In this document: positions 3,555 through 44,292 of the stretch, in pieces
Layout of the letters: each line of letters starts with the position of its first letter
Position numbering within the stretch: the stretch's first letter is position 1
The notes under the pieces: generated by a model
The model's input: the letters and a program-made list of their open reading frames with translations, nothing else
Databases searched by the model: none
Told to the model about the DNA's origin: nothing
Program-made: the position numbers and the translations under genes
Source: Candidatus Latescibacterota bacterium
GTDB lineage: Bacteria; Latescibacterota; UBA2968; UBA8231
Length of the DNA: 64,000 nucleotides
Assembly (NCBI GenBank): GCA_965218365.1
Contig: OZ244619.1
Span: 3,715,231-3,779,230 of the forward strand
Direction: 5' to 3'

Positions 3555-3630
3555 ATCTTCATTGCTTTCCTTTGTCCCTAAGCCGGGGGCACGGACGTGT
3601 TAAATGAAGTTTGCCCAAAATGCTGGTAGT

Positions 3631-9543: not shown

Positions 9544-9557
9544 CGCCGCTTCGACAG

Positions 9558-10109: not shown

Positions 10110-10412
10110 TAACTCAACCGCCCTCATTCTAACCAACGCTGATGTGGGTTTCACCTTGGCTTCGGTTTAGTATTACAACGACGGTTGGTGTGATAGGATG
10201 ACTGGGTAGTTGGGGAAGACTTGGGCAAGTGAGGCCGGGAAGTGGATGCGGGGGCTTTCGAGCACGGTGATAGATACTGGCTGCAGTATCAGCGCAAGCG
10301 TTTGTTCGCTCCGCTTGACCCGAAGGGGACTCCTGACTGGTCAGTCCCGATATGCTCCCCGCACTCAACTCCAGGGCCAGAAGTTACACACACCCTAATA
10401 TGGTAATATGAT

Positions 10413-11156: not shown

Positions 11157-11161
11157 ATAAT

Positions 11162-11824: not shown

Positions 11825-12165
11825 GGATCATCGCTGCTCTGACCGATCCAGCCTCGATGCGGACCTATCTGGAGGGCGTAGGGCTGCCGGCGGTGCCCCC
11901 CCCGAGGGTCCCGCCTCAACCCCAGTTCGAGTTCGCCGCCTGACCTCCTCCGCGATGGGCACCGGTGAGCCCTGCGGAGGCATGCGTCCTGAATGGTCTC
12001 AGCGAGGACCGGGTTGGACCCGATACGGGCTCACAGGCAACCCAACCCTACTGCGAGCCCTGTCAAACGACCTGCAAACGATCCTCAGCGAGCTTGCCCT
12101 GCCCCTTGCGTGTGTTCGGCGCCTTGACAAGAGGGCCGAAAAGGGGCCTCATTTTTCCTATACTT
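11790..12165 (+). mobile_element. IS91/ISCR-family element remnant, copy 4 (last ~45 codons of tnp plus 3' end)
   Basis: Starts within ..LSACPACGGRLRIIAALTDP.. and ends with the conserved tail ...tcctatactt. Confidence 0.8.
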
Positions 12166-12366
12166 TGCAGTTCATTGATGATACGGAGAGCATGATAGCC
12201 GGATTCGAGAATGTGGATGCCATGGACAGACGGGCGTTTGCGGTTTTTGTTTTACTGAGGAATAGACGATAGTGGTGGATTTCAGATTATCAGGTCAGAG
12301 AGATGGTTAGTCGAAGAGGCTGGACACGTCAACAATCGCTGCGGATTAGGGCGAAGGAGAGATTGA

Positions 12367-15080: not shown

Positions 15081-16436
15081 TTGGCAAACCAAGACCTGGA
15101 CCTATACGAACGCGTTTACGAACTGTTCCACCACCTGGGCCTGACGAAAGCGCACGTGGCCGCCCACCAGTGGCCGGGTGACTGGCAAGGTTTGGCCGGC
15201 GAGCGCCCCGAGCTGCTCTCATCCTTGACCCTCGCCGGCGGATTGCCGCCAGATACCTCTGCGTTGGAAGACATGTCTGTGCCCCTGTTCGTTTTCTACG
15301 GAGAAGGTGGTTCTGCCGATCGCGATATCGGGCCGACCTTGGATTCTTGGACCAACGCAAGCTCATTGAAACTCAGCGGCTATTCCCGAGAGCTGTGGGA
15401 CGATATCGTAGCCGACCGTTTAGAAGAGATCGCGCCGGCCTGGGAAGAGTTCCTTGGTAACGCGGATGCAGCGGTTGCGATTCACGAGGCCACGTGTAAA
15501 GAAGGCGCCATCCATGACGCTGCTTGTAAGGAAGGCAGTGGCGAGCACGCGGGGTTGAGGTATGAGGTGCGCGGCTCGGGACCGGCGCTGGTGTTGTTCC
15601 CCCTGGGACTGGCGAAATCTCAGTGGGAACCGCTCGTGGAACGACTGGCCGAGCGCTATTGCACGATCACCGTTCGGGGGCCACACCTGGGGCCGGCGGC
15701 GGTTCTGGAAGGACGCGCCAGATCGAGTGGATACCTAGATGTGGTAGGAAGGGTTGTGGATGTGGCGCGGCTGCAGCCGGGAGAACGGGTGCTCGAGGTG
15801 GGGTGTGGTACCGGCGCCATTGTGAGAAGGCTGGCCGCGCACAACCCTGAATGTTCCTTCACCGGTGTCGACGTGAACACATATCTACTGGAGGAAGCCA
15901 GGTCACTGGCGGAGGCAAACGCAGCGGAGGCGATCAAATTTGAGGAGGGAAACGCCGAGACGCTGCCTTTCCCGGACGGAAGCTTCGATGCCGCCCTGTC
16001 GTTCACGGTGCTCGAGGAGCTGGATGTGGACAAGGCGTTGGCGGAAATGGTGCGGGCGGTGAAACCGGGAGGTCGGGTGGGCGTTCTCGTCCGTTCGGTG
16101 GATACATATGTGGTCGTGAATGTACCGGTAGGCGCTGAAGTACGACAAAAGTTGGAAGCGCCACCCCGATGGTGGGGCGGGGTAGGGCAGAAAGGGTGCG
16201 CTGACCGGAGTTTGTACCGCAGATTTATCGACGCCGGGCTCAAGGATGTACAGATGTTGCCGCAGCTTGCCACCTACACTGACCGGGAACGATTGGAGGG
16301 AGTGTATCCTCAGTTTGCTGTGCTGCTCGATTCAAAAGAGCGGGATGAATGGTGGACCGCGGTGCAGGCAGCCACGGCGGAGGGAACGGCATTCATCTCG
16401 CAGCCGATGCACAGTGCTGTAGGTACGAAGCGATAG
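15081..16436 (+). CDS. Two-domain protein with a C-terminal class I SAM-dependent methyltransferase domain
   Basis: VLEVGCGTGAIVRRLA (motif I) followed by ..FDAALSFTVLEEL..MVRAVKPGGRVGV (motifs II/III). The N-terminal ~200 aa are unrecognised. Confidence 0.6.
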   Translation: MANQDLDLYERVYELFHHLGLTKAHVAAHQWPGDWQGLAGERPELLSSLTLAGGLPPDTSALEDMSVPLFVFYGEGGSADRDIGPTLDSWTNASSLKLSGYSRELWDDIVADRLEEIAPAWEEFLGNADAAVAIHEATCKEGAIHDAACKEGSGEHAGLRYEVRGSGPALVLFPLGLAKSQWEPLVERLAERYCTITVRGPHLGPAAVLEGRARSSGYLDVVGRVVDVARLQPGERVLEVGCGTGAIVRRLAAHNPECSFTGVDVNTYLLEEARSLAEANAAEAIKFEEGNAETLPFPDGSFDAALSFTVLEELDVDKALAEMVRAVKPGGRVGVLVRSVDTYVVVNVPVGAEVRQKLEAPPRWWGGVGQKGCADRSLYRRFIDAGLKDVQMLPQLATYTDRERLEGVYPQFAVLLDSKERDEWWTAVQAATAEGTAFISQPMHSAVGTKR

Positions 16437-18598: not shown

Positions 18599-19648
18599 AT
18601 GGCTACAGAGCAACTGTTCATCGTGAGCACACTGACGGATTCCGACGGAATCTTCATCTATCGCATAGCCGACGCAGACGGGCATCTCGAGTTGGTTCGA
18701 CAATACAAGGAGATCAGCAATCCGTTCTTTATCGACCTCCATCCGAACGGCAACGTCGTCTACAGCATTTCAGATCCAGACAACGAACAGATGGTGGAGG
18801 CTCTTGCCCTGGATCGTGCTACCGGTGAGCTGACCCCGATAAACAAACAACCGACCCAGGGGGGCTACCCCTGTTACGTCACGGTCGATCCAAGCGGGCG
18901 AATGGTGGTGGCGGCCAACTACAAAGGAGGCAGCGTCATATCTTACCCGCTCGAGGAGGACGGGGCGTTGGGTGCGGTGGGATCTTTCGTGCAGCACGTT
19001 GGCCACAGCGTCGAGCCGCGCCGCCAAATAGAACCCCACGCCCACTGTTTCAAGGTGGCGGCCGACGGCCGGTTTGCTTTTGCCGCCGACCTCGGCATGG
19101 ACAAGGTCATGATCTACGCCCTCGATCTCGAGGCTGGCAGCTTGAGTCCCGGCCAGCAACACTTCGCTCGCGTCCAACCAGGAGGCGGCCCCCGGCATTT
19201 CATCTTTTCACCGGATAGTCGGCACGGCTATGTCATCAACGAGATGGGGAACACAGTTACCTCGTTCGTTTACGACCGGAAACAAGGGTTGTTGTTGGAG
19301 CGGGACTCGGTGCCAACCCTGCCGGCGGATTTCGACGGCCACAGTGCTACAGCCGATCTGGCGTTCACCCCCGACGGACGTTTCCTCTACGGCACCAACC
19401 GGGGTCACGAAAGTCTCGCCATGTTCACGGTGGATATCCAAAGCGGTGCCCTGACTCCCAACGGAATCGAGCCGAGCCGGGGGGAGATGCCACAGAATAT
19501 CACCATCACCCCCGACGGGAAGCTGCTCTTTATAGCCAATACCAAAGGCAACAACCTGGTCGCCTTCCACATAGATCAGTCTTCGGGTAAGCTAAATTTC
19601 AGCTGTGAACTCGAGATGCCGGCACCGGTATGTGGTGTGCTTGGATGA
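18599..19648 (+). CDS. 7-bladed beta-propeller lactonase (6-phosphogluconolactonase / cis-carboxymuconate lactonizing-enzyme-like)
   Basis: MATEQLFIVSTLT..GIFIYRI....LELV......NPFFIDLHPNGNVVYS......VEALALD..TGELTPINKQPTQGGYPCYVTVDPSGRMVVAANYKGGSVISYPL is the typical Lactonase (PF10282) layout. The RBS is ggaggagaa. Confidence 0.65.
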   Translation: MATEQLFIVSTLTDSDGIFIYRIADADGHLELVRQYKEISNPFFIDLHPNGNVVYSISDPDNEQMVEALALDRATGELTPINKQPTQGGYPCYVTVDPSGRMVVAANYKGGSVISYPLEEDGALGAVGSFVQHVGHSVEPRRQIEPHAHCFKVAADGRFAFAADLGMDKVMIYALDLEAGSLSPGQQHFARVQPGGGPRHFIFSPDSRHGYVINEMGNTVTSFVYDRKQGLLLERDSVPTLPADFDGHSATADLAFTPDGRFLYGTNRGHESLAMFTVDIQSGALTPNGIEPSRGEMPQNITITPDGKLLFIANTKGNNLVAFHIDQSSGKLNFSCELEMPAPVCGVLG

Positions 19649-19661
19649 AGGAGATTACCTG

Positions 19662-21290
19662 ATGAATCAAGCAAGACGCGACGCCCGCTGGCGCAAACGA
19701 CGCATCATATACAACAACGACGGTGACGATGCTCTCTATGCCCGCGATGGCCTCGAACACGAACACGACGTCGCCGAGGCGCTGACCGTGCGCACCGCGG
19801 GCGAGCTCATAGACGATTTCCTGAGAGCCCGCAGCACCCCGCTCATCGGATCGCAGGTCGATAGCAACTGGTACGCCAGCTGCATGGCCGGCTTGACATT
19901 CTCCCACAACACCAAGCTTGGCGGGTTCTACGGCAAGGAGCTGCCACTTGAGCTGATCGAGAAATACGGTAAGGACCCCCTCGAGGTGCAGCTGGATTTC
20001 AGCCGGGAGAACGCGATGGAAGCGGTGTGGGCGTTGCGCATGAACGACGCCCACGACGCCTATCCCATGGGCTCCCGCCGGTGGACCTACGGATTGGCCC
20101 CATTCAAAGCGGAGCATCCCGAATGTTTGATGGGAGAAGACGGCGACTGGGAGAAGTACATCGGTGTCAACCAGAAAAATACCTGGACCAAGCTCGACTT
20201 CTCCCTACCAATCGTGCGAGACCACATCTTCGGCATCATTCAGGAGGTGGCCCAGAACTACGACGTCGACGCCATCGGCATGGAGTTCTTCAAGTACAAC
20301 CCATTCTTCCGCGAGTCCCACGAAGGCGAAGCGGCCACCCCCGAGCACGTCGAGATCATGACCGATCTCTTACGGCGGATCCGTAAGATGGCGGACGAAG
20401 AAGGGCAAAAGCGCGGCCGGCCGATTCTGCTGGCGGCGCATACACCCCCGGACCTTGCCTGGTCCCGGTTCATCGGTCTCGATCTGGAAACCTGGCTCGC
20501 CGAACAGCTGATCGACCAGCTGATGCCAGGCGGTTTGAGCGAGTCGGTCTATTGTGACTCGCACAGCGAGATGATCGAGCTGGGGCACCGCCACGATATT
20601 CCGGTCTACCCCTGCATGAGTTGGGGCTTCTGGACACGATGGGCCTATCTCGACCTGTCCGCGGGCAAGCACCGAACCGCTGCCTCGTACCTCGAGAACC
20701 TATACGGTGGGCAAACCGACCGCCTGGGGAAACCGTCCTATATCCTGACCTACAACGGCTGGAAGGACACCCATGCCGCCTGGCGCGGCGCCGCGATGAA
20801 TCTCCTCAATGACGGCGCCGACGGTTTGTACATCTTCAATCCCGCTCTGGGCGAACCGGAATGGTGGCAAGACATCGGTGAAGTAGCGACCATGGAGGGC
20901 AAAGACAAGCTGTTCGGTATGGATCGTTTTCCGGGCGCGAGGGGAAATGTGGATCAGGTGGAGCTGAAGCAGGGCGAGAAGGTGACGTTGAGCTTCCTGG
21001 TCGGCGAAGACCCATCTGCAGTTGACGCCCGGCTCCAGTTTCGCGCCCACCTGTGGGATCTCACTACAGACGACGAGGTCGTCGTTGAACTCAATGGGAA
21101 GCTATTGTCCACCCTTGAGGTCAACGACGCTTTCACCTCACCGGAAGAGGGACAATGGTTCGAGGGCGATCTTAGGGCCGATCACGTGGTGCGCGGGCAG
21201 AATTCGGTGGTACTGGTATTGAACAAGCGAGCCGGGTCCGTACAGAGACCGCTGCTGCTGAACACCATTCAGCTCGCGGTTCGGTATTAA
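19662..21290 (+). CDS. Conserved hypothetical protein (possible TIM-barrel glycoside-hydrolase-like), paralog of 42661..44292
   Basis: Over 543 aa it is about 60% identical to the ORF at 42661 (RRIIYNNDGDD...TPLIG[ST]QVDSNW[YF]ASCMAGLTFSH[NH]TKLGGFYGK...). No family is confidently recognised. Confidence 0.45.
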   Translation: MNQARRDARWRKRRIIYNNDGDDALYARDGLEHEHDVAEALTVRTAGELIDDFLRARSTPLIGSQVDSNWYASCMAGLTFSHNTKLGGFYGKELPLELIEKYGKDPLEVQLDFSRENAMEAVWALRMNDAHDAYPMGSRRWTYGLAPFKAEHPECLMGEDGDWEKYIGVNQKNTWTKLDFSLPIVRDHIFGIIQEVAQNYDVDAIGMEFFKYNPFFRESHEGEAATPEHVEIMTDLLRRIRKMADEEGQKRGRPILLAAHTPPDLAWSRFIGLDLETWLAEQLIDQLMPGGLSESVYCDSHSEMIELGHRHDIPVYPCMSWGFWTRWAYLDLSAGKHRTAASYLENLYGGQTDRLGKPSYILTYNGWKDTHAAWRGAAMNLLNDGADGLYIFNPALGEPEWWQDIGEVATMEGKDKLFGMDRFPGARGNVDQVELKQGEKVTLSFLVGEDPSAVDARLQFRAHLWDLTTDDEVVVELNGKLLSTLEVNDAFTSPEEGQWFEGDLRADHVVRGQNSVVLVLNKRAGSVQRPLLLNTIQLAVRY

Positions 21291-23228: not shown

Positions 23229-24578
23229 ATGAACGATAAAGAGACGCAACGCATCCGCGATCCGGTCCATGGTCTTATCGTGTTCGGCGGCGGGAACGAC
23301 GCACACCAGAACGAGACGGACCGAATCGCGTGGCGTCTGCTCAACACCCGAGAATTCCAGAGGCTGCGCCGGATTCGTCAGTTGGGCTTCTCCGACCTGG
23401 TATATCCCGGCGCGACGCACAGCCGCCTGGCGCACGCCATCGGTGTCTACCACACCGCGCGCCGGCTCATCGAGGTGATTCGCCGACGGCAGGACGAAAC
23501 GCACGAGGACAAGGAACGCGAACGAGTCGTACTTTTGGCGGCGCTTCTTCACGACATCGGGCACGGGCCGTTCAGCCACGTCTTCGAGCACGCGCCCTAT
23601 GCCGCGAAACGCCATGAAGATTGGGGCGCGGAGATCGTCCAGGGCGAAACCGAGGTCAACCAAGTGTTGAGGGAAGTGGACGAAGTGTTGCCTGAGCACA
23701 TTGGAGCGCTGCTGAAAGAGGACACCCCCAAGGATTTCTACGCCACAGTTGTCTCCAGTCAGTTCGACGCCGACCGGCTCGATTACGTGCAGCGGGATCG
23801 CCTGATGACCGGAGTCGAGTTCGCGCATCTCGATTTTGACTGGCTGCTCGATTGCCTCGAGGTCGGAACGATCACTATTGATGATAGGGATGCACTGGTC
23901 GAAGAGCCTTGCCTGTATCTGAACTTCAAGGGTGTGCAGGTGGCCGAGGAGTACCTCCAAGCGCGCTTCCGCCTCTACACAATGGTCTACATGCACAAGA
24001 CCACGCGGGCCGCCGAGAAGATGCTCGACGCTCTGCTGAAGACAGTTGCGGAGGATTTTAGAAACTGCGAATTGGCGAGCCGGGATCCAGTTCTACGCTA
24101 CTTTACGTCTGAATCGCCGTCTTTGGATTCATATCTCGATCTCGACGATGCCGCGGTTTGGGCGACCTTGGCGGCCCTTGCCGAATCACCATCACACCCA
24201 CTGGTTTCGGATCTGGCACGTCGTCTGCGAGAGCGCCGTCTTTACAAATGTTTTGACATCGGTATACAGGACAGCTCGGGCGGCAATTTGTACACCCGCT
24301 TCAGGCGCAAACTGCGTGAAAGTCATACTGAGAAGTACAGCACTCTTTTTTTCGACGACGCGAAAGTCGCGCTTTATAAATGGTACGACTTTGCCGATTC
24401 TTCAGCGCTCAATAAGGTTCTGGTAAAAGTACGCGCCGAGGATCAAGAACCAAGGGACATTGCAGATGTATCGAACATCGTCCCTGCGCTTCGTGAAGAG
24501 GAGCGGATTCAGAGAGTTTACGCGCCAGACCAGAACCAGATAGATGAAGTCAGGCAGACAATGGAGGAGATCAGATGA
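23229..24578 (+). CDS. SAMHD1-like / dGTPase-like HD-domain dNTP triphosphohydrolase
   Basis: IRDPVHGLI...FQRLRRIRQLGFSDLVYPGATHSRLAHAIGVYHTARRL...LLAALLHDIGHGPFSHVFE...DADRLDYVQRD is closely collinear with the SAMHD1/Dgt-family HD core. Confidence 0.7.
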   Translation: MNDKETQRIRDPVHGLIVFGGGNDAHQNETDRIAWRLLNTREFQRLRRIRQLGFSDLVYPGATHSRLAHAIGVYHTARRLIEVIRRRQDETHEDKERERVVLLAALLHDIGHGPFSHVFEHAPYAAKRHEDWGAEIVQGETEVNQVLREVDEVLPEHIGALLKEDTPKDFYATVVSSQFDADRLDYVQRDRLMTGVEFAHLDFDWLLDCLEVGTITIDDRDALVEEPCLYLNFKGVQVAEEYLQARFRLYTMVYMHKTTRAAEKMLDALLKTVAEDFRNCELASRDPVLRYFTSESPSLDSYLDLDDAAVWATLAALAESPSHPLVSDLARRLRERRLYKCFDIGIQDSSGGNLYTRFRRKLRESHTEKYSTLFFDDAKVALYKWYDFADSSALNKVLVKVRAEDQEPRDIADVSNIVPALREEERIQRVYAPDQNQIDEVRQTMEEIR

Positions 24579-25114
24579 AGGCCGAAGAAATCGTGGTCAA
24601 CCTAATCATATTGAGTGGCGGCGAACTGACCGGGCGGACGCGGCTGCAGAAGGAGGCATATCTTTTGGACCGTTGCGGAGCAAAGTTCGGGTTGTCGTTT
24701 ACTTATTACTATTACGGTCCTTACTCCTTCGAGCTTGCCGATGGATGGGAGGACGCGCGGGCAGAAGGTCGGATTGAAATCGCCGAAGAGCCGGGCCGGT
24801 ACGGTGTCCCGTATTCGATCTTCAAACTGAAGAAACCCGGCGGCGCCCCGGACCGCCTGGGTAACATGTCGGTTGACGCTGCTCGCGCACGGCTGAACGA
24901 GATGGTGGGTGTTTCGGACATTGTTCTCGAGCTCGCTGCCACCATCGTTTATCTGAAGGAAGAAGGTTACGGCGAGCAGACCATCGAAGAATTGAAAATC
25001 CGCAAGCCTCTCAAGGCGACGGACCAGCTGATCGAAAAAGCCAAGAATCTGCTGGGCGGCCTCGGATTGTCGCCTGTAGGTGCCGAAGATTCTGCAGGAC
25101 CGCTTACCCACTGA
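24575..25114 (+). CDS. Small protein with Panacea (DUF4065/SocA-like antitoxin) domain-like N-terminus
   Basis: ATGA overlap with the HD gene. LTGRTRLQKEAYLLDRCGAKFGLSFTYYYYGPYSFEL follows the Panacea pattern (s.TKLqKLLYla....g.plf...f.aw.yGPv). The call is tentative. Confidence 0.4.
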   Translation: MKAEEIVVNLIILSGGELTGRTRLQKEAYLLDRCGAKFGLSFTYYYYGPYSFELADGWEDARAEGRIEIAEEPGRYGVPYSIFKLKKPGGAPDRLGNMSVDAARARLNEMVGVSDIVLELAATIVYLKEEGYGEQTIEELKIRKPLKATDQLIEKAKNLLGGLGLSPVGAEDSAGPLTH

Positions 25115-25335: not shown

Positions 25336-26160
25336 ATGATCCTTCCGCCTCTCCTTCATCTGGCCGCGGCCGCTTTTGCCGCCGCGTTGGCGGGGTGCAG
25401 CCACACCGCCCCGTACTACCGGGCCGACGTCGCCGGCGGGGCCGCCGGCCCGGCCCTGCCCGCAGAGGACCTCGCTTTCCGCGTGATCCTGATCGGCGAC
25501 GCCGGCGCCCCGGGTCCCCGGGAACCGGTGCTGGCCACCCTGAAGGCGTGGGCGCGCAGAGACCCGGACCGCACCCTGGTCGCCTTCCTGGGGGACAACG
25601 TCTACGAGGACGGCTTCTCGGGGGCGGACCGGCGCGACGAGGAGCGGCGCCTGGAGCGCCAGCTGGAGACCCTCGAGGGATTGCCCGGGCCGCGGGGGCT
25701 GTTCATCCCGGGCAACCACGACTGGGCCGGGGGTTCGGAAGCGGGGCTGGCGGCGCTGAAGGCGCAGCAGGAGTACGTCGAGGCCCGCCTGTCGCCGGGG
25801 AGCTTCCTGCCCCGGGACGGCCGCCCCGGACCGGTGAAGATCGACCTGCCGGATTCCGCTGGCGCCGTGCTGCGGCTCGTCGCCGCGCTCGTGCGCTGCC
25901 TGACGACGGATCTGCCGGTGGTCGTGCTCGCCCACCACCCGCTGGAGTCCGCCGGCAACCACGGCGGGTTCTTCGACTGGCGCGACTGCCTGTTTCCGGC
26001 GACCCGGGCCACCGATGCCCCGTGGGCCTGGCTGATCCCGGCGCCCCTGGTCTATCCGCTGGGGCGGAGGTTCACGCCGCTGGGGACCGGGCAGGACATC
26101 TTCGCGCCGGCCTACCGGCAGATGAAGGAAGATCGGGGACGAACTCCGGTTTTCGTAGCC
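25336..26160 (+). pseudogene. Calcineurin-like metallophosphoesterase lipoprotein, C-terminus replaced by an IS91-family tnp fragment (chimeric ORF continues to 26982)
   Basis: Signal peptide plus lipobox LAGC; phosphoesterase motifs ILIGDAG, GDNVYEDG, GNHDW, VLAHHP. From about 26150 the same ORF reads ..QRIVQTIAHRIIRLYTKRGLLDD..AASVRGIIATGERAGQRLRRAL.. and on into the Y2 transposase C-terminus. The junction is approximate. Confidence 0.5.
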
Positions 26161-27205
26161 GCCCCGCCGTTGTCCGACCCGGAGGTGCAGCGGATCGTGC
26201 AGACGATTGCACACCGCATCATCCGCCTGTACACGAAACGCGGCTTGCTCGACGACCCTCCAGCCGACCGGCTCGCCGACGAGGAGCCCGTGCTGGCCGT
26301 CCTCACGGCCGCCTCGGTGCGGGGGATCATCGCCACCGGGGAACGCGCCGGCCAGCGCTTGCGACGCGCCTTGAAAGATCCGGCCACCGGGGTGCGTACC
26401 GCGCCCTTGTGCTTCGCTTCGCGCGGCTTTTCTCTGCATGCAGCGACGCGGATCGCGGGCTCGGACCGGCGGGGGCTCGAACGCTTATGCCGCTACGTGG
26501 CCCGACCGGCCCTGGCCGCCGGGCGCCTGCGCCTGCTCGATTCGCAACAGCTTTCCTTCGCGCTCAAAACGCCGTGGTCGGATGGGACCATCCATCTGCT
26601 CCTCTCTCCGATGGAATTACTGGAAAAACTGGCGGCTCTGGTCCCCCCTCCCCGGCTCCATCTCCTACGCTACCACGGGGTCTTGGCCCCTCGTGCCCGA
26701 GATCGTCACCGCATCGTGCCGGCGCAGCCGCTAGCCGAGTCGCCGGCGGCCAACCGCGCTTCGAGCGCTCCGCCTTGCGGCCATCGCCTGGGGTGGGCGG
26801 CCCTGCTCGCCCGCGTGTTTGCCCCCGACCTCAGCGCCTGCCCGGCCGGTGGCGGTCGCCAGCGGATCATCGCCGCCCTGACCGATCCAGCCTCGATCCG
26901 ACGCTACCTGGTGGGCGTGGGGCTGCCGCCGAAAGCCCCGCCGAGGGCTCCGCCACAGCCCCAGTTCGAGTTCTCCGTCTGACCTCCTCCGCGATGGGCG
27001 CCGGTGAGCCCTTACGGAGAAATGCGTCCTGAATGGTCTCAGCGAGGACCGGGTTGGACCCGATCCGGGCCCACAGGCCACCCAACCCTACTGCGAGCCC
27101 TGTCAAACGACCTGCAAACGATCCTCAGCGAGCTTGCCCTGCCCCTTGTGTGTGTTCGGCGCCTTGACAAGAGGGCCGAAAAGGTGCCTCATTTTTCCTA
27201 TACTT
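26150..27205 (+). mobile_element. IS91/ISCR-family element remnant, copy 8 (C-terminal ~275 codons of tnp plus 3' end), fused in frame to the upstream gene
   Basis: Contains ..[112 protein letters not shown].. and the conserved tail. Confidence 0.75.
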
Positions 27206-29467: not shown

Positions 29468-30292
29468 CTATTCTGTAAACCATCTACTCGACCGCTCACG
29501 GCTCTCATACCGCGAAGATGGAAGCGCAACCCTTACATCATTGCAATTGCTTTTTTCTATGAAGAAAGTCGGCACAACACTATCTCGGTTCTTCACATTC
29601 GCGACTTTTGGCGGAAATAGCGGCTCAGAAATCTCAACAAGTTGAAATCGGCTAGCGGATAGGGTATTGAGGTAAGTCGATAGCATTCGATGATGACTTC
29701 CCAGAGTCCCGCACATCCCCGTTCCGCCGGAGTACCACTTACCCTCTTGGCTATATCTTGAAACGCGTAGCGCTTGGAAATTGCCATCTTCGTCGAATTC
29801 TTCTGGCGGATCCTCGACATTGAAAGGACTGACAAAGCACGGGTGAAGAATGCGGAAAATGAACTTGCCGCCGTCGACAAGAACACGACGAATACTGGAA
29901 AACGTTGCAGACAGGTCAAGAATGTCCATGAGCGCCATGTTGCAGATAACGGCATCCATGCTGGCATCAGAAACTTGCTTCATTGACTGCGCGTCGTCCA
30001 AGACATACGTGATTCCAGCTTGGTTCGAATGTTCCTGTGCATTGCGAAGCAGAATTCGTGAGATATCGATGCCAGTAACCAACGCACCGCGACTTGCGAG
30101 GACGCGGGCCAGATAGCCTTCACCACATGCCAAGTCACATGCGCGAACTCCTTGGACATCACCGAGCATATTGAGCATGATCTCTGTTGACGGATTGATT
30201 CGCTCGTCCCTATCCGGAAGGTTCTTGTCCAGCCAGTTGATATAGAAATCTTCAACTTTGTCATATTCTGACTCTGGCAAATCGTTGGTCAA
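29468..30292 (-). CDS. Class I SAM-dependent methyltransferase
   Basis: ACDLACGEGYLARVLASRGALVTGIDIS (motif I) and ..DAVICNMALMDI.. (motif II). GC is about 48% in the low-GC island. Confidence 0.7.
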   Translation of the reverse strand: MTNDLPESEYDKVEDFYINWLDKNLPDRDERINPSTEIMLNMLGDVQGVRACDLACGEGYLARVLASRGALVTGIDISRILLRNAQEHSNQAGITYVLDDAQSMKQVSDASMDAVICNMALMDILDLSATFSSIRRVLVDGGKFIFRILHPCFVSPFNVEDPPEEFDEDGNFQALRVSRYSQEGKWYSGGTGMCGTLGSHHRMLSTYLNTLSASRFQLVEISEPLFPPKVANVKNRDSVVPTFFIEKSNCNDVRVALPSSRYESRERSSRWFTE

Positions 30293-30337: not shown

Positions 30338-31195
30338 TCAAACAGCTTTCGTGTAACGTTTTCGCGGTGCCGAACCGCGAAGCCGGAGCGTAACACCGCT
30401 GCTGTTATGAGCCTTGCGGTTCCTCGCTGAAGCCAATAAGGTCATACTCTTCGTGCAGTTTGTATCCAAGCTTTTCTGCGAGTCCATCAGATCGGGGATT
30501 CGCGGTGGTCGTCCAATGTGGATCTTTTTTGATCTTGAGGCACTCTGATAGTAGGGCGGCGGATGTAACATCGCCAACCCCAATCGCCCGAATTCATCAT
30601 CGGTCCCGACGCCAACCTCGATTGAGGAGTTGCTAACCCCGAATGTTGTGGCCTCGGAGACTCGCCTTCCGTCCTTGAGGACCCAGAAGCTAATCCCACC
30701 TTTGTCAAAGAATTGTCTGATTTTGACAAAAGCCAAACTCGCTCAGGCCATGTCGATACCTAACTCCTCGGCTATCGTTTCGTCGAAACGCCGGAGCTCA
30801 AATCCCGGAGGTAACACACTCATTAGCTCAGCGAGGTGGTTTGGGTCAAGATAGCGGGATGAGTAAACTCTTTTCCTCTGCCTCACGGAACGTCGTTTTG
30901 TAGAGTCGAGTACGGCTGCCTCCCACTCCTCTGTTTCCGGGGTCACAAATCCTCCGGTGAAATCGGCACTCCACTGTGGAACCGTATTCGTCGTAGGAAT
31001 TCTTGAACAAATTTCGGTAAGATGCGGGGAAGATGAATTGCCCTCGAGCAGAATATCTGTTCCTACCCGTAGTTGGGCGATCTCAGGTTCGGCAATGGCA
31101 TCCACAGACAGCTCTACAGAATTTCCATACCCATCAAAGTAGCCCTCGAATGTGGCATCAATAAGCGGGCGAAATCTCCTGTGTTCTCCGAACAA
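30338..31195 (-). pseudogene. GNAT-family N-acetyltransferase with N-terminal extension, disrupted by an in-frame TGA (30743-30745) and a +1 frameshift (~30560)
   Basis: ORFs 30743..31195 and 30338..30736 are in the same frame, separated by one TGA. Motif A is ..VGVGTDDEFGRLGLA... After a shift in a ccgccgccc run the frame continues ..ALLSECLKIKKDPHWTTTANPRSDGLAEKLGYKLHEEYDLIGF*, which is the GNAT C-terminal motif B. Confidence 0.45.
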
Positions 31196-37064: not shown

Positions 37065-37374
37065 TGAGCTGCTTTCGGTGAAATGGCAAAGTAATGGATG
37101 CGAGATTGTTATCGCCGCCGAACTGGGGCAATTCTAAGCTGATCGCACCACCCGAGCAATGCGTGCGCGTTTGGCCCGAACGACGCGGAAGGGAGCGACG
37201 CGGCCGGGCGTTTCGGTCGTTCGACCGATTTCGGCGCCGAGCCTGTGCCCCTTGAGAATTCTGCGCACCGAGACGAGCTTTCGGCGGCCCTCCCATGTCC
37301 GAGCTCAGCTACCGTAATCTGATCACCCTGTCCGTCCCCGCCATCCTCTCCGTCGCCATGGAGCTGAAAGATGC

Positions 37375-38198
37375 GGCCACCGGGGTGCGTACGGCGCCTT
37401 TGTGCTTCGCTTCGAAGGGCTTTTCTCTGCATGCGGCGACGCGGATCGCAGGCCCTGACCGGCGGCGGCTCGAACGCTTATGCCGCTACGTGGCCCGACC
37501 GGCCCTGGCCGCCGGGCGCCTGCGCCTCCTCGATTCGGCACACCTTTCCTTCGCGCTCAAAACACCGTGGTCGGATGGGACCAGCCATCTCCTCCTCTCG
37601 CCGATGGAATTACTGGAAAAACTGGCGGTTCTGGTCCCCCCTCCCCGGCTCCATCTCCTGCGCTACCACGGGGTCCTGGCCCCACGGGCCCGAGACCGCC
37701 ACCGCATCGTGCCGGCGCAGCCGCTAGCCGAGTCGCCGGCGGCCAACCGCGCTTCGAGCGCTCCGCCCTGCGGCCATCGCCTGGGGTGGGCGGCCGTGCT
37801 CGCCCGCGTGTTTGCCACCGACCTCAGTGCCTGCCCGGCCGGTGGCGGTCGCCTGCGGATCATCGCCGCCCTGACCGATCCAGCCTCGATCCGACGCTAC
37901 CTGGTGGGCGTGGAGCTGCCGCCGAAAGCCCCGCCGAGGGCTCCGCCACAGCCCCAGTTCGAGTTCTCCGTCTGACCTCCTCCGCGATGGGCGCCGGTGA
38001 GCCCTTACGGAGAAATGCGTCCTGAATGGTCTCAGCGAGGACCGGGTTGGACCCGATCCGGGCCCACAGGCCACCCAACCCTACTGCGAGCCCTGTCAAA
38101 CGACCTGCAAACGATCCTCAGCGATCTTGCCCTGCCCCTTGCGTGTGTTCGGCGCCTTGACAAGAGGGCCGAAAAGGTGCCTCATTTTTCCTATACTT
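37375..38198 (+). mobile_element. IS91/ISCR-family element remnant, copy 11 (C-terminal ~190 codons of tnp plus 3' end); left bracket of the HEPN cassette
   Basis: Nearly identical to copy 9. Confidence 0.8.
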
Positions 38199-38395
38199 CT
38201 CTACCGTCGTCGCTTAATCCGAGACGTGATGTACAAGCACGACGCCTCGTGGAACCACCATACGACCTTCGATCCGAGGCGAGGGGCGCTCGACCAGTAT
38301 CGTCGTTAGGCAATCACGTTACCCCCAGAAAATCTACATTAGATAAACTTCACCAAGCAAAGCACCTGAGAGCGTATAGCGCTGGAGCGAGGCAC

Positions 38396-38821
38396 ATGAG
38401 TCTTTTGAAGCAACAGAACGGCGACGATTACCCTGAAGCTGCAAACAAGCATTTACAGGATGGGTACGTACTCCTGAAGGGCAACCGCTTCGATGGAACT
38501 GCTTATCTGGCCGGGTACGTGGCCGAGTGCGCAATAAAGACGCTGATTCAAGTAGAAACCGGATCAGGTTTTCGCTCTCACGAGCTTGTTGAATTGCAAA
38601 ATACCTTTGGTACACTTGCCGCACAGTTCGGTGCTCGTACTAGCCGGTTCTACAATCCATTGGCAGCGCAGCTAAAAAACTCCGAGGTTATCAAATGGAA
38701 CCCGGAAATGCGCTACCGCGGTCCTGCGATCACCGAAAACAGTGCCCGCGAGATGGTTCGGGAGGCAAACGAGATATATGGATTGGTAATCGGCGAACTC
38801 ATTCTGGACGGAGTGATCTGA
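38396..38821 (+). CDS. HEPN-domain protein (pfam05168-like; no Rx4-6H motif seen)
   Basis: MSLLKQQNGDDYPEAANKHLQDGYVLLKGNRFDGTAYLAGYVAECAIKTLI..GSGFRSHELVELQNTF...EMRYRG..ENSAREMVREANEIYG matches the HEPN pattern LL..G.Y..A...AYYA.E.ALKALL......SH.L..L...F....R..Y...A.E....A.E. The RBS is ggagcgagg. The stop overlaps the next start. Confidence 0.5.
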   Translation: MSLLKQQNGDDYPEAANKHLQDGYVLLKGNRFDGTAYLAGYVAECAIKTLIQVETGSGFRSHELVELQNTFGTLAAQFGARTSRFYNPLAAQLKNSEVIKWNPEMRYRGPAITENSAREMVREANEIYGLVIGELILDGVI

Positions 38822-40146
38822 TGCAACACTTGGACGATGCCTACCGACAGGCAGAAAAAATTCTAGCGGGATTTCTAGAAGACAAGTCAGTAAACTGGCG
38901 CATCCTTTTGATTAAAGATGTCTTTGCCAAGCTACGTATCGTCCTTTGGTGTCCCAAAAAAAGTAGGGAATCCGGCCGCGAAGAAATCAATCAAAGCCTT
39001 CGTCAGGTCTCATCGCCCTACTGGTCAGAAAACGTGTTGTTCGGGCAGAAAAAGGATGAACCGCCCAATGGCCCTTGGCAAGATGCTGCTTGGCGTAAAG
39101 CACAAGATGTCGAGGGAGTGAATGGTCTTCGGGTCTTGGAGCGACACCGAGCCAAGACGGGTTGGTTTGAATCCCCCGACGAGCCGCCATGGACCCTCAA
39201 AAAAAACACTGGAGTTCCTATTTGCCTCTTCTATTCGTTTAAAGGGGGCGTAGGTCGGTCGATGGCCCTCGCGGCGACTGCGTTGCATCTGGCTACTGCC
39301 GGTGATCGAGTTGTCGTGCTAGATGCGGATCTTGATGCACCCGGAGTAGGTTCCTTACTCGCGGGATACGACAGCGCGACTGCCCCGTGGGGCATTGTGG
39401 ACTATCTACTCGAGTACCCCATCTTGGCCGAAAATGGAGGACTGGATATCGGAGATTACTATCACCTCTGTCCGTCCGAACTCGTGCCTGGGCAAGGAGA
39501 AATTCTCGTATTTCCGGTGGGGGTTTTCGATGATCGGTATCTTAACAAGCTCGCACGGCTCGACTACGGAGTTCCACCGGATCATCCAGAACATCCCTTC
39601 GTTTCACTTCTGAAACAGATTGGCCGAGACCTCGCACCAGATTGGATTCTGGTTGATGCCCGTGCTGGACTGGGCGATGTGTCGGGGTTCTTAACTGGAG
39701 GTTTGTGTCACCTTCATGTGTTGTTCGGCACACTGGCAGACGCGAGTTGGCAGGGTATGAAGCAGATCGTAGATCGGCTCGGGGGCACTCGGGTACGGGA
39801 AGGCAAGCCCCAAGCTGAGTGCCTAGTAGCAGCGGCGATGATACCGCGATCTCAAGAGGCCCAGTATCAAGAATCCGTGGAATGGTTCACGGATCAAGCA
39901 CGCGATGTGTTCTCCAATTACTATTACGCAGAAGCAGGACACCAAGACAAATTTTGGACGATGGACGACATGGAGAACACCGATGCCCCGCATGTCCCTA
40001 TCGTACTGCCCTACGACGAACGCCTTGCTCTTTTCCGAAATCTGAGCGAAGTCAATTCCATCCTGCTTACTCCGAACGGGCCTTATGGAGAGCTTGCTGA
40101 GCATCTGAAAGCTGGCTCCCGTCGATTGAAGGAGACAACTAAATGA
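38821..40146 (+). CDS. ParA/MinD-like deviant-Walker-A ATPase with unique ~170-aa N-terminal domain (Walker A KGGVGRS, with Arg in place of the P-loop Lys)
   Basis: ICLFYSFKGGVGRSMALAATALHLATAGDRVVVLDADLDAPG is the KGGxG[KR]S P-loop plus DxD. The Walker B candidate is WILVDARAGLGD. The TGATG overlap with the HEPN gene and the ATGA overlap with the next gene indicate translational coupling. Confidence 0.5.
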   Translation: MQHLDDAYRQAEKILAGFLEDKSVNWRILLIKDVFAKLRIVLWCPKKSRESGREEINQSLRQVSSPYWSENVLFGQKKDEPPNGPWQDAAWRKAQDVEGVNGLRVLERHRAKTGWFESPDEPPWTLKKNTGVPICLFYSFKGGVGRSMALAATALHLATAGDRVVVLDADLDAPGVGSLLAGYDSATAPWGIVDYLLEYPILAENGGLDIGDYYHLCPSELVPGQGEILVFPVGVFDDRYLNKLARLDYGVPPDHPEHPFVSLLKQIGRDLAPDWILVDARAGLGDVSGFLTGGLCHLHVLFGTLADASWQGMKQIVDRLGGTRVREGKPQAECLVAAAMIPRSQEAQYQESVEWFTDQARDVFSNYYYAEAGHQDKFWTMDDMENTDAPHVPIVLPYDERLALFRNLSEVNSILLTPNGPYGELAEHLKAGSRRLKETTK

Positions 40147-41651
40147 ACAACACATCGAGACTCACTAAAGAGCGGTGTACTGACCTGCGTGGTCAGCTCA
40201 GCGATCTTGGCTATGGGCAGGCTGAATCGGAAACGTCGGAACTCTTCTCACACAGACTTTATCTCGTCCCGGAACATCTACGAGCACTTGATCCGCGTGT
40301 CGTACTGGTCGTCGGTCCCCGCGGTGCAGGGAAGAGCGCGTTATTCAGAGCCATCTTCTTAGGGATGGATCTCGGCGATGCGATCATTCGTCGCGTACCA
40401 CAAATCGCAAGCACCGCTATGCAGTTTGACTCTACGACTTGGAAGGCCGCCTTTCCTGAAGGCACTAGTTTTCCCGACACTCAAGCCCTTGAGCGACACA
40501 TCAATTCGGACGAGCAGGCGAAGCGCATTTGGTATCTGATGCTCGTCCGGTGTCTGACGTGCGAGTTCGACGACGCCCAAAAAGCAAGCTTGCGGCCCCT
40601 GACCGAGCCAAGAGCTGCAGAAATCGACAAAATACTCGCTGCTGCTAACTCACTGGAAGCCAATCCTACAGCGGTTCTGGACGCACTGGAAGAGCGACTC
40701 GAACGCGAAGGACGCTGGGTTTTTGTCGGCTACGATGAGCTTGATACGTTAGGAGGTTTCAATTGGACATTGATGGCACGAATGGTGCGCGGGCTTGTCG
40801 CTTTCTGGTCTGACTACAGTAGACGTTGGCGACGGATTCGGGCAAAGATATTCCTCCGCTCCGATCTTTTTCGCCGACACGCAGGCATGGGTACCGCAGA
40901 CTTTGCAAAGCTTGCTGCCAATCGCGCCATACTTGGCTGGTCTGACGCAGCAATACTCGGAATGCTGGTGAAGCGCATCGCCAACACATCTGACGAATTA
41001 GAGTCCTACTGTCAAGGGGCAAGGGTTACGTTTGAAAAGGATGATACGCTCGGGTTGGTTCCCAATATACAAGCGCCTGATGTTGCCCACCCATTGCTGG
41101 AGCGGATGGTAGGCGAGTACATGGGCTCCGACAAGAAGAAGGGGTTTGTCCGCAATTGGATACTTGCCCATCTACGAGATGGAAACGGCGATCTCTGCCC
41201 GCGTACGCTCGTGCGACTGGTAGAGATCGCCGCCGCGAATAACTCGGCGAACCGAACTCTGCGCCCGCCGCGGCTGATCCATCCCACAGCACTACGCCAA
41301 GCCCTCAATGACGTGTCAAGCGACCATGTAACCCAAGGAATTAGCAGCGAATGGCCATGGTTGGAGGGGGTTAAAAGGCGACTGAAACAACAGCAGCTTG
41401 TGCCGTGGCAGAGTAGTGAGATTGTGAATCTGCTCAACTCGGACTGGGATGAAACTTGGGGACTACCAAGTAGCACTCCCGTGCGACCGCCCGAGGAAAG
41501 GCCGGCGGATCTCGTTAATTATCTCGTCGAGCTTGGTATTTTCCGGAGACGCTCCGATGGGCGGGTTGATGTGCCTGACCTGTATCTGTTTGGCCTAGAA
41601 CTCCGTCGCAAAGGCGGCGTTAAGGTAGGTGCTCGTCGCCAAAGAAGCTGA
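40143..41651 (+). CDS. AAA+/STAND-like P-loop NTPase (502 aa)
   Basis: ..HRLYLVPEHLRALDPRVVLVVGPRGAGKSALF (Walker A GPRGAGKS) and RWVFVGYDELDTL (Walker B hhhhDE). The sensor-2-like segment is PRTLVRLVEIAAANN. The C-terminus is unrecognised. Confidence 0.45.
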   Translation: MNNTSRLTKERCTDLRGQLSDLGYGQAESETSELFSHRLYLVPEHLRALDPRVVLVVGPRGAGKSALFRAIFLGMDLGDAIIRRVPQIASTAMQFDSTTWKAAFPEGTSFPDTQALERHINSDEQAKRIWYLMLVRCLTCEFDDAQKASLRPLTEPRAAEIDKILAAANSLEANPTAVLDALEERLEREGRWVFVGYDELDTLGGFNWTLMARMVRGLVAFWSDYSRRWRRIRAKIFLRSDLFRRHAGMGTADFAKLAANRAILGWSDAAILGMLVKRIANTSDELESYCQGARVTFEKDDTLGLVPNIQAPDVAHPLLERMVGEYMGSDKKKGFVRNWILAHLRDGNGDLCPRTLVRLVEIAAANNSANRTLRPPRLIHPTALRQALNDVSSDHVTQGISSEWPWLEGVKRRLKQQQLVPWQSSEIVNLLNSDWDETWGLPSSTPVRPPEERPADLVNYLVELGIFRRRSDGRVDVPDLYLFGLELRRKGGVKVGARRQRS

Positions 41652-41822
41652 GGATTGGCCTGCTTTTCATTTGAGAGTAAGATGATCGAATACTAAAGGT
41701 CTGATTCGGCAGCTTCATCGGTGCTTTGCTGCGCTACTTAGTCGCAATACAGATCCAGAGTCGACGAGTGGAACAACCTCGTCGGTGTCGCCGAACACGC
41801 CGCAACTGAAACGCGCCTGCCC

Positions 41823-42057
41823 TCTCCGTCTGACCTCCTCCGCGATGGGCGCCGGTGAGCCCTTACGGAGAAATGCGTCCTGAATGGTCTCAGCGAGGAC
41901 CGGGTTGGACCCGGTACGGGCCCACAGGCCACCCAACCCTACTGCGAGCCCTGTCAAACGACCTGCAAACGATCCTCAGCGAGCTTGCCCTGCCCCTTGT
42001 GTGTGTTCGGCGCCTTGACAAGAGGGCCGAAAAGGTGCCTCATTTTTCCTATACTTT
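41823..42057 (+). mobile_element. IS91/ISCR-family element remnant, copy 12 (tail only); right bracket of the HEPN cassette
   Basis: tctccgtctgacctcctccgcgatgggcgccggtgagccc...tcctatactt. Confidence 0.8.
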
Positions 42058-42660: not shown

Positions 42661-44292
42661 GTGAATGCAGACCATATGAAGGCGCGCTGGCGGCAACGCC
42701 GGATCATTTACAACAACGACGGCGACGATGTAATCGAAGCACGCTCCGGAGTGGAACATGAGTATGACGTCTCCGCAGCCACGACGGTACGCGCCACCGG
42801 AGATCTGGTACAAGATTTTCTCGATGCCCGCAGCACGCCTCTGATCGGCACCCAGGTGGACAGCAACTGGTTCGCCAGCTGCATGGCGGGCCTCACCTTT
42901 TCACACCATACGAAGTTGGGCGGATTCTACGGCAAGGGGATCCCGCTGGAGCTGGTGGAGAAATACGGGCGCGACAGTTTGCAGGTACAGCTGGATTTCA
43001 GCCACGAGCACGGCATGGAAGCAGCTTGGTGCCTGCGCATGAACGATGTCCACGACGCGTTCCCCATGGGTTCGCGTCCATGGACCTACGGTCTGGCCAA
43101 GTTCAAGCGAGACCATCCGCAATGCTTGATGGGCAAGGAGGGCGATTGGGAGAAATACGGCCAGCACGACCCGCGGTCTGGATGGACGCGATTGGATTTC
43201 GCTGTTCCAGAGGCGCGCGAGCACATCTTCGGCATCATTCAGGAGGTGGCGCAGAACTACGACGTGGACTGTATCGGCATGGAGTTCTTCAAGTACTGGC
43301 CCTTCTTCCGTGAGTCGCTGGAGGGCAATCCCGTCGAACCGGAGCATCTGGAGTTGATGAACGATTTTTTGCGGCGCATCCGGCACATGGCGGACGAGCA
43401 GGCCAACCGCCGCGGCCGCCCACTGCTGCTGGCGGCGCATACCCCGTTCAGCCTCGCCGATTCGATCCACGTGGGGGGCGACCTGGAAACGTGGCTGAAG
43501 GAAGGATTGATCGATCAGCTCATGCCCGGCGGCAACTACGAATCGGTTTTCTGCAGTTCCTACAGCGACATCATCGCACTGGGACACAAGTACGAGGTTC
43601 CGGTCTATCCCTGCGTGTCCTGGGGCTTCTGGGATCGCTGGGCCTTTCTCGGACTTACCGATGGCAAATACAGACAGTTCGGGTCGTGGTTAGAGACCCT
43701 CTACGGAGCTCAGCCCGAGCGCGTCGGCAGACCGTCGTTTATTCTGGTGTTCAACAGCTGGGAGGGCACAATGGCCGCGTGGCGGGGAGCCGCCTCGAAT
43801 CTGTTCAATTCCGGCGCCGATGGGCTCTACCTCTTCAATCCCCAGTTCGGGGAGCCGCAATGGTGGCGCGAGATCGGCGAACCGGCAACCATGGCCGGCA
43901 AAGACAAGCTCTACGGCATCGAGCGTTTTACAGGCCCCGACAGCTTTACCGAAACTCCGGAGGTTACCCTCCCCGTGTCCGCGGGTTTTCAGGTGGGCGA
44001 GGAGGTCGGATCCGCCGGTGCGCGCAGCATCGATTTCAGCCTGCATCTGTGGGATTGGGCTCCCGGCGACGACCTCTCGGTGAAACTCAACGGCGCGGCG
44101 GTCGAGGGGCTAAATCCGGTCGATCCGGACCGCAACCCCAAGGAAGGTCAGTGGCTGCGGGGCACGCTCGATGCCAGACAGATCCGTCGCGGTGAGAATC
44201 AGCTGGACGTGGCGGTTAAGAACCGCGGCGAGTCCGCTTCGTCTGCGGTCGTGCTTGACGCAGCGCAGCTGCGGGTTCGTGCGAAGGAGTAG
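42661..44292 (+). CDS. Conserved hypothetical protein, paralog of 19662..21290
   Basis: See 19662..21290. Full length and intact. Confidence 0.45.
   Translation: MNADHMKARWRQRRIIYNNDGDDVIEARSGVEHEYDVSAATTVRATGDLVQDFLDARSTPLIGTQVDSNWFASCMAGLTFSHHTKLGGFYGKGIPLELVEKYGRDSLQVQLDFSHEHGMEAAWCLRMNDVHDAFPMGSRPWTYGLAKFKRDHPQCLMGKEGDWEKYGQHDPRSGWTRLDFAVPEAREHIFGIIQEVAQNYDVDCIGMEFFKYWPFFRESLEGNPVEPEHLELMNDFLRRIRHMADEQANRRGRPLLLAAHTPFSLADSIHVGGDLETWLKEGLIDQLMPGGNYESVFCSSYSDIIALGHKYEVPVYPCVSWGFWDRWAFLGLTDGKYRQFGSWLETLYGAQPERVGRPSFILVFNSWEGTMAAWRGAASNLFNSGADGLYLFNPQFGEPQWWREIGEPATMAGKDKLYGIERFTGPDSFTETPEVTLPVSAGFQVGEEVGSAGARSIDFSLHLWDWAPGDDLSVKLNGAAVEGLNPVDPDRNPKEGQWLRGTLDARQIRRGENQLDVAVKNRGESASSAVVLDAAQLRVRAKE

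Follow-up and report, generated by a model that had tools for sequence, protein, structure and literature searches.

A copy of the candidate phage defence operon PDC-M28 within an array of ISCR tails in an uncultured Latescibacterota bacterium

PDC-M28 and its three proteins

A set of 145 untested "phage defence candidates" (PDC systems) has been compiled through 'guilt by embedding' in BREX, DISARM and type I restriction-modification loci, and one of these, PDC-M28, is the three-family cassette CAS_00115 of the accompanying supplement (Payne et al., bioRxiv 10.1101/2024.01.29.577857). 'Inactive MinD/ParA-like' domains are also known in NTP-dependent conflict systems, among them VMAP ternary and AP-ATPase-linked systems (Kaur et al., eLife 2020, PMC7159879). 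Here we describe a three-gene operon (genes A, B and C) in a 64,000-nucleotide stretch of contig OZ244619.1 from a Candidatus Latescibacterota bacterium; this whole stretch is referred to as the window, and coordinates are those of the window unless another contig is named. The triad is a complete, selected copy of PDC-M28, and as such is a new member of a catalogued candidate rather than a new system. Our overall reading, to which we assign a probability of about 0.6, is that this PDC-M28 copy was captured by ISCR-type elements and acts as an NTPase-switched module of defence or conflict.

Membership of PDC-M28 was assigned with the hidden Markov model library of PADLOC-DB v2.0.0 together with the gene order A>>B>>C. 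The PDC-M28A model matched protein A at 8e-11 (residues 10-131 on profile positions 3-129 of 138), while the PDC-M28B and PDC-M28C models matched their proteins over full length, B at 3e-56 (residues 1-410 on 1-407 of 438) and C at 8e-68 (residues 11-494 on 5-477 of 480). The same three families therefore occur in the same order as in the PADLOC entry, with no difference at the family level; what is particular to this copy is its host, an uncultured bacterium with a 5.9-Mb genome, and its seat in an array of ISCR tails. A preliminary description of this DNA had taken the triad to be undescribed, which is not so given the match of three PDC-M28 models in order. In addition, the Lys-to-Arg P-loop of B to which that description drew attention is the hallmark of a family with its own NCBIfam model (NF047398), and inactive MinD/ParA-like domains in conflict systems had already been published (PMC7159879). 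Its account of the gene layout is in agreement with our data: the three open reading frames (ORFs) lie where it had placed them (Table 1), neighbouring genes do overlap at stop and start codons (TGATG at 38819-38823 between A and B, and ATGA at 40143-40146 between B and C), and a conserved, co-directional and overlapping triad was recovered as the same gene set across independent contigs and loci. Profile and structure comparison likewise bore out its domain calls of a HEPN protein, a ParA/MinD-like protein with a Lys-to-Arg change and an AAA+/STAND-like ATPase, and the motifs that it listed, KGGVGRS in B and GPRGAGKS and VGYDELD in C, are all present and conserved among homologues.

Protein A matches Pfam PF05168 (HEPN) at 28.2 bits, above the threshold of 22 (profile 6-114 of 117). 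Alignment of 50 members of its family showed that H19, R31, Y37, Y41, E44, C45, K48, H62, W101, R106 and Y107 are kept. The catalytic HEPN motif Rx4-6H, which the preliminary description had not seen in A, is absent both from A and from these 50 aligned relatives; R106 is invariant with no histidine after it, and H62 is invariant with no conserved arginine 5-7 residues upstream. From the general topology of HEPN domains we take R106 (followed by Y107), just ahead of the C-terminal conserved stretch, to be the expected site of Rx4-6H. All listed homologues of A are stand-alone, single-domain proteins of ~140 aa, and as such they provide no fusion ('Rosetta stone') evidence for its function. In being a small PF05168 protein encoded first in a tightly coupled operon, A resembles the HEPN proteins of HEPN-MNT modules and the HEPN RNase effectors (Cas13, Csm6, ApeA, HEC-08). 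In contrast to these, it does not contain Rx4-6H, and only the arginine, R106, remains.

Protein B matches NF047398 (AAA_KGGVGR, 'KGGVGR-motif variant AAA ATPase') at 150.2 bits against a cutoff of 90, over profile positions 2-189 of 190, while its matches to the MinD, ParA and VirC1 equivalog models are weak and far under their cutoffs. The ParA/MinD fold is retained, as are the signature Lys141, the switch aspartates D168, D170 and D172 (DxDxD) and the Walker B residue D279. The canonical second lysine of the deviant Walker A motif, KGGxxK[ST], is missing from B: the P-loop motif KGGxGR(S/T) is invariant, with Arg146 in place of the P-loop lysine in 29/29 close homologues, and this arginine is also kept in the Burkholderia and Calothrix relatives at ~27-35% identity. 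By analogy with Lys-to-Arg work on related ATPases, this replacement suggests that B probably binds nucleotide and hydrolyses it poorly. The N-terminal residues 1-110 of B form a confident small alpha/beta domain in the predicted structure, the structural matches of which are generic ferredoxin-like folds only. This domain has no Pfam match and no sequence relatives in the PDB, and a search of 1.84 billion representative proteins found 107 relatives, nearly all with the domain at or near the N-terminus of proteins no longer than ~530 aa. The C-terminal ~160 residues have predicted local distance difference test (pLDDT) scores below 50. B and NF047398 share with the published inactive MinD/ParA-like domains (PMC7159879) a SIMIBI ParA/MinD fold that is predicted to be catalytically impaired and that occurs in conflict systems beside STAND-type ATPases, a likeness drawn from the description of those domains and not a claim that they belong to the same KGGVGR family. 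B differs from them in being a separate protein with a private N-terminal domain, unfused to vWA, kinase or AP-ATPase domains, and in being paired with a HEPN protein and an Sll1717-family ATPase.

Protein C matches NCBIfam NF047389 ('P-loop ATPase, Sll1717 family') at 91.8 bits against a cutoff of 75, with residues 23-474 aligned to profile positions 2-422 of 454, and falls under the cutoffs of the Pfam NACHT, nSTAND and AAA_16 models. Its Walker A (GPRGAGKS) and Walker B (VGYDELD) motifs are canonical and conserved. An AlphaFold2 model (pLDDT 86) has an AAA+ fold of the ORC/Cdc6/STAND type, and the closest folds in a structure search were those of the DNA-binding AAA+ proteins Cdc6/ORC, TnsC, MuB and BrxC. 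At its extreme C-terminus C carries the motif (I/V)PD(L/I)(Y/F)..G....(K/R)R(K/R)GG(V/I), encoded at 41560-41648, which runs out into a basic, disordered tail (pLDDT below 50) and is conserved across Sll1717-type homologues down to ~25% identity, including the Burkholderia and Calothrix proteins. The KGGV core of this tail echoes the P-loop KGGVGR of B, probably by coincidence. Compared with the STAND- and ORC-type NTPases of known defence systems, such as Avs, bacterial NLR-like proteins, RdrA of RADAR and BrxC of BREX, C is short at 502 aa, lacks a fused effector as well as any sensor array of the TPR, WD40 or LRR type, and is set apart by its own model (NF047389) and its unique conserved RRKGGV tail. 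A PDB sequence search with the three family profiles returned only matches to the P-loop stretch or, for HEPN, a marginal match to 1WOL (E 0.22).

Capture of the triad from a sulfatase locus

The described arrangements with which the flanks of the triad can be compared are the ISCR1 complex class 1 integrons and the ISCR2/ISVsa3-tet(X4) units, which contain truncated ISCR2. A repeat comparison across the whole window found 13 same-strand repeat copies in 42 kb (3292-44869), and two of these stand as direct repeats on either side of the cassette, as the preliminary description had observed. In a multiple alignment the right end of the repeat was identical to the base in 13/13 copies (...TTTTTCCTATACTT, the terminus also given as ...GGCCTCATTTTTCCTATACTT; that of copy 11 reads ...CCTATACTT). 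The sequence to the right of this terminus is unrelated in every copy, while the left ends are cut at differing points, giving tails of 169 to 834 nt. The end of ISVsa3 is near-identical (GAAAAGGGCGTTTATTCTTCCTATAC, 234 nt past the stop codon, against GAAAAGGTGCCTCATTTTTCCTATAC, 221 nt past the stop codon, in the window), so that the boundary common to all copies on the right is an oriIS-type terminus from an element of the ISCR family. Within copy 11, the ORF at 37295-37975 encodes the C-terminal ~170 codons of a transposase without the HUH-containing N-terminal half, and 223 nt of non-coding sequence separate it from the end of the copy. This fragment matches Pfam Y2_Tnp at 73 bits (profile 84-179 of 183) and NCBIfam ISCR_clade_Ia at 128 bits (profile 313-485 of 509), and is 40% identical to the transposase of ISVsa3/ISCR2, an element itself present on thousands of plasmids. 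The profile matches and the comparison with the ISVsa3 end thus agree with the earlier identification of the flanking repeats as ISCR-type tails with an oriIS-like end. With a ~230-nt non-coding 3' tail and a terminus common to known ISCRs, they are remnants that retain an oriIS end rather than autonomous ISCR/IS91 elements: of the transposase just the C-terminal third remains, all 13 copies in the window are 5'-truncated, no intact transposase lies in the 64-kb window, and terIS was not identified. The likeness to the ISCR1 and ISCR2 units therefore consists of direct, 5'-truncated ISCR copies around unrelated cargo, with a precise oriIS-side boundary in all copies and a terminus close to that of ISVsa3. 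In contrast to those units, the array described here lies in an environmental uncultured bacterium, has 13 tails in 42 kb, and carries metabolic, methyltransferase and candidate-defence cargo in place of resistance genes; its transposase also differs from that of ISCR2, at just 40% identity and with no intact copy in the window.

The source of the cassette is indicated by two relatives. The cassette from 38199 to 41820 is 91% identical over its full length to positions 9380-13003 of a 151-kb contig without an ISCR tail (L001), and window 38199-41759 has 99.0% nucleotide identity to positions 2379-5938 of a second contig, L093 (ENA ERZ25067264 ctg613450), with an identical B protein. Both contigs carry an intact sulfatase gene (L001 7994-9490; L093 993-2489), from each of which the window sequence at 38199-38309 reads on directly. 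Homology to both begins exactly at 38199, the first base past the oriIS terminus of copy 11, and ends at 41820 for L001 or 41759 for L093. The second sulfatase fragment, which is 59 nt long and lies downstream of the triad, is 90% identical to L093 2261-2319 and 83% identical to L001 9262-9320. In the intact sulfatase this piece sits ~60 nt upstream of the piece at 38199-38309, and it is contiguous with the duplicate of the sulfatase 3' end found behind the triad in L001 (12945-13003). Since homology to the native loci starts at 38199, the window copy is a piece of a sulfatase-triad locus that was cut within the sulfatase at both ends. On the left it abuts the oriIS terminus of one tail exactly, and on the right it meets the next tail at that tail's truncated 5' end, where two bases (41821-41822) can be assigned neither to cargo nor to tail. 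The proposal in the preliminary description that the cassette is mobilised cargo is borne out by these sulfatase stubs and by the two relatives, and we consider it highly probable that the triad is at once a member of PDC-M28 and ISCR-captured cargo.

The native order in L093 is AP endonuclease, sulfatase, triad and FAA hydrolase, with no duplication of the sulfatase; in L001 the triad follows the intact sulfatase and is itself followed by a 220-nt direct duplicate of the sulfatase 3' end (9262-9480 and 12945-13163). When L093 and the window are compared, the last ~100 nt before 41759 are far more diverged than the remainder, and the junction at which gatccaga meets gtcgacgagtgg is common to the window and L001 and absent from L093. 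These two features imply that the history of the locus involved more than one recombination event. A 3683-nt contig from a sister sample, L002, closes on itself seamlessly and has the length of one unit (3463 nt of unique sequence plus a single 220-nt repeat), broken at the position that corresponds to the ISCR junction of the window; this contig may represent a circle, a tandem repeat or a loop in the assembly graph. By analogy with the ISCR1 and ISCR2 units, transfer into the array probably occurred either by rolling-circle co-mobilisation of cargo and tail together, or through a circular unit that recombined with a tail already in place. As no intact copy is found within the window, the transposase would need to have acted in trans. 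Since the split from the L001 copy all three genes have been under purifying selection, with ratios of non-synonymous to synonymous substitution rates (dN/dS) of 0.24 for A, 0.20 for B and 0.15 for C.

Features of the cassette and its immediate flanks are collected in Table 1. The spacers between the tails and the three genes measure 197 nt on the left and 171 nt on the right, close to the ~190 and ~170 first given. The cassette does lie below background in GC content, as had been noted, with corrected figures of 53.6% for the cassette (not ~52%), 60.3% for the window and 63.7% outside the array (not ~65%); the triad is also low in GC in its second host, at 52.7% against 61% in L001. The hairpin at 41762-41784 exists as described. 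It is part of the sulfatase coding fragment and not a feature of the cassette, and with no T-tract after it a role as a terminator is ruled out. No sigma-70-type promoter was detected upstream of the cassette in a scan that covered this one promoter type, an Rfam family scan gave no match and a tRNA scan found none.

Table 1. Positions of the cassette genes, sulfatase remnants and flanking tails in the window
Feature	Position	Strand	Remarks
ISCR/IS91-family tail, copy 11	37365-38198	+	Transposase C-terminal fragment, then non-coding tail
Sulfatase remnant, last 111 nt including the stop codon	38199-38309	+	Ends ...LYRRRLIRDVMYKHDASWNHHTTFDPRRGALDQYRR*; reads on from the intact L001 and L093 genes
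Gene A, 141 aa, HEPN	38396-38821	+	PF05168; PDC-M28A
Gene B, 441 aa, KGGVGR-variant ParA/MinD-like ATPase	38821-40146	+	NF047398; PDC-M28B
Gene C, 502 aa, Sll1717-family P-loop ATPase	40143-41651	+	NF047389; PDC-M28C
Second sulfatase remnant, 59-nt internal coding fragment (DEWNNLVGVAEHAATETRL)	41762-41820	+	L093 and L001 matches
ISCR tail, copy 12, last 234 nt only	41823-42056	+	98% identical to 37965-38198

Distribution and possible function of the triad

A scan of one genome per species gave at least 585 loci. Among the matches listed are Spirochaetia, Acidobacteriota, Gemmatimonadota, Planctomycetota, Myxococcota, Elusimicrobia, NC10, Cyanobacteria, Bacteroidota, Verrucomicrobia and one archaeon. 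Gene order was counted in 80 retrieved loci, with loci where the contig allows as denominators: C lies directly after B in 76/78, and A directly before B in 55/73 by tblastn, to which a HEPN profile adds 12 loci (at least 67/73) and one fragment. This order is held from 25% to 91% identity, and in independent contigs the operon (141, 440 and 500 aa) keeps its overlaps and stands as a bare 3.4-kb insertion among unrelated genes. Annotated copies in cultured organisms are carried by plasmids of Burkholderia glumae 336gr-1 (NZ_CP023206, 38938-42133) and Calothrix PCC 7716 (AP025020, 90275-93605), and the Calothrix triad has as neighbours a large AAA ATPase and genes annotated as a type III restriction subunit and as DUF450. 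Among 132 ORFs flanking ~50 loci, the commonest defence matches were pAgo (3), SIR2-APAZ (3) and several ABC-ATPase candidates (2 each), which suggests an association of the triad with defence genes, although these are raw counts without a background set and do not amount to statistical enrichment.

The scattered distribution, the low GC content in two hosts, insertion as a bare unit and the presence of some defence neighbours together suggest the signature of a conflict system, as do the embedding by which PDC candidates were defined and the inactive MinD/ParA-like domains known from such systems. We consider a role of the triad in defence or conflict to be somewhat probable, and in this respect the defence role raised in the preliminary description is upheld as a plausible reading only. 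As for the ISCR context, other cargo of the array is mostly non-defence, so this context argues for mobility and not for defence. This other cargo consists mainly of methyltransferases, a beta-propeller protein, an enolase-family enzyme and GNAT, SPFH and glycosidase-like genes, and the only defence-type matches within it are weak dGTPase-like and DarG-like ones.

Several further points weigh against a defence function. PDC-M28 is explicitly an untested candidate (bioRxiv 10.1101/2024.01.29.577857), and a literature search found, within the library that it covered, no characterisation of PDC-M28 or of the KGGVGR or Sll1717 families. With Rx4-6H missing family-wide, a role of A as an RNase effector is doubtful, and nothing else encoded in the operon is obviously an effector domain. 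Few of the neighbours are defence genes, with just 2-3 of the 132 flanking ORFs for each of the commonest families, and many loci lie amid metabolic genes. Among viral contigs there were just 5 weak, partial relatives, and phage-borne copies were essentially absent. The reading of the ISCR array as a defence island finds no support in its chiefly metabolic and methyltransferase cargo, and the roles proposed below for the N-terminal domain of B and the tail of C are conjectural.

If the triad is a defence or conflict module, the three proteins might act as a relay. C is likely to be the sensor, being the sole subunit with a standard Walker A/B site and a fold of the sensor or loader-switch type; it would be an ATP-driven switch responding to an invader cue, either DNA or protein. 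B would serve as a nucleotide-dependent dimerising adaptor. Its private N-terminal domain and the basic RRKGGV tail of C are candidate contact points, and we conjecture that this tail may act much as ParB, ParG or MinE peptides do on ParA-type ATPases. A would be the sole candidate output or, alternatively, a regulatory subunit that binds nucleotide or RNA, and the cell would end in arrested growth or abortive infection. We put this specific mechanism forward tentatively and think it unlikely to be right as it stands. A bolder form of it, which we regard as improbable, is a new immune switch in which the RRKGGV tail of C drives a hydrolysis-impaired dimer of B, and this dimer then frees or activates A as a HEPN protein of non-canonical type; separately, the 13-tail array could be an integron-like cargo platform that recruits chromosomal modules.

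HEPN proteins are often toxins, as in HEPN-MNT modules, and the tight overlaps of the three genes and the occurrence of the triad on plasmids, beside transposases and inside the ISCR array would all fit an addiction or stabilisation module of mobile DNA, of the toxin-antitoxin kind, in which A is the toxin and the two ATPases restrain it. However, A has no Rx4-6H motif, two large ATPases would be an unusually costly antitoxin, and most copies are chromosomal and outside recognisable mobile elements. We therefore think this explanation unlikely. Nor can it be fully separated from a defence or conflict role, because toxin-antitoxin and abortive-infection functions overlap.

The resemblance of C to DNA-binding AAA+ proteins leads to a further explanation, that B and C bind DNA and exclude plasmids or other foreign DNA, with A as a non-catalytic regulator that binds nucleotide or RNA, and with a host factor or the ATPases as the agents of killing or exclusion. 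ATP-bound dimers of ParA/MinD proteins typically bind DNA or membrane, and classical PF05168 HEPN domains without Rx4-6H are generally seen as binding modules, both of which are consistent with such a role. However, profile searches show that the operon encodes no nuclease or other DNA-acting effector, DNA binding by B and C is a prediction, and the P-loop arginine of B suggests a motor that does not work. This possibility also appears to us unlikely.

It could be argued that the triad is inert, a decaying operon that hitch-hikes on ISCR activity, as every ISCR copy in the window is truncated, A or C is truncated at some other loci (L017, L020 and L049, for example), and the scan for sigma-70-type promoters upstream was negative. 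The last point is weakened by the restriction of that scan to a single promoter type, and three intact ORFs with their overlaps kept, dN/dS values of 0.15-0.24, 99% identity to a copy in its native context and an identical B protein make decay very improbable. Least credible of all is a housekeeping ParA-type system for positioning or partition (of chromosome, plasmid, Tad pilus or organelle) in which the other two proteins are accessory: B does have the ParA/MinD fold, signature lysine and switch aspartates, with weak matches to MinD, ParA and VirC1 models, but its scores on those equivalog models are far under cutoff while the KGGVGR variant model is over its cutoff, the P-loop lysine is replaced family-wide, no ParB- or MinE-type partner or pilus gene is adjacent, the fixed partners are a HEPN protein and an ORC/STAND-like ATPase, and distribution is patchy, composition foreign and the wider contexts varied and unrelated to partition or division.

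Other features of the array and the significance of the locus

Several observations concern the array at large. Four tails (ending at 14558, 27205, 29314 and 38198) share a near-common left boundary at tail positions equivalent to ~37365-37373, which could reflect a non-autonomous derivative of ~835 nt or a preferred termination site. The longest 'transposase' ORF of the array (25336-26982, +, 548 aa) is a phosphoesterase/transposase chimera, in which a calcineurin-like phosphoesterase (residues 48-215) is in frame with an ISCR transposase C-terminal fragment (352-454), and is a junction product of a truncated insertion sequence copy. At 23229-25114 (+), a low-GC two-gene cassette between tails encodes a protein with HD and HD_assoc_2 domains and a weak PADLOC dGTPase match (4e-08), followed by an overlapping gene for a 179-aa protein with a weak DarG-like match (6e-06); this cassette may be a second defence-type cargo. 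Genes of GHL10-like glycosidase type at 42661-44292 and 19605-21290 have 72-77% DNA identity and an offset of exactly 22,999 nt; they occupy different inter-tail segments and as such are diverged paralogues. Two adjoining short ORFs at 30338-31195 (-) match consecutive halves of one GNAT acetyltransferase model (22-133 and 149-199), and probably represent a frameshifted pseudogene within a low-GC cassette. Three distinct S-adenosylmethionine-dependent methyltransferase genes occupy separate inter-tail segments (3631-4380, -; 15081-16436, +; 29468-30292, -), two of them matching PADLOC mad2 at ~1e-19 by way of a generic methyltransferase domain.

The triad belongs under PDC-M28 and not in a new system of its own, and the locus offers a clean and datable case of a candidate defence operon that entered an ISCR array as a copy of a chromosomal locus, stubs of the adjacent gene included; the copy in its native context is 99% identical. 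PDC-M28 itself merits study, as it is widespread (in at least 585 species genomes), tightly conserved and uncharacterised, and this locus supplies both concrete residues and cultured sources for experiments. The point of interest is the joint logic of its components, since the HEPN protein lacks the catalytic motif, the P-loop of the ParA/MinD ATPase is naturally 'dead' and the ORC/STAND-like ATPase is short. Should the bolder form of the relay be true, PDC-M28 would pass its signal through three parts, without a fused effector and with no known catalytic motif in its output subunit.

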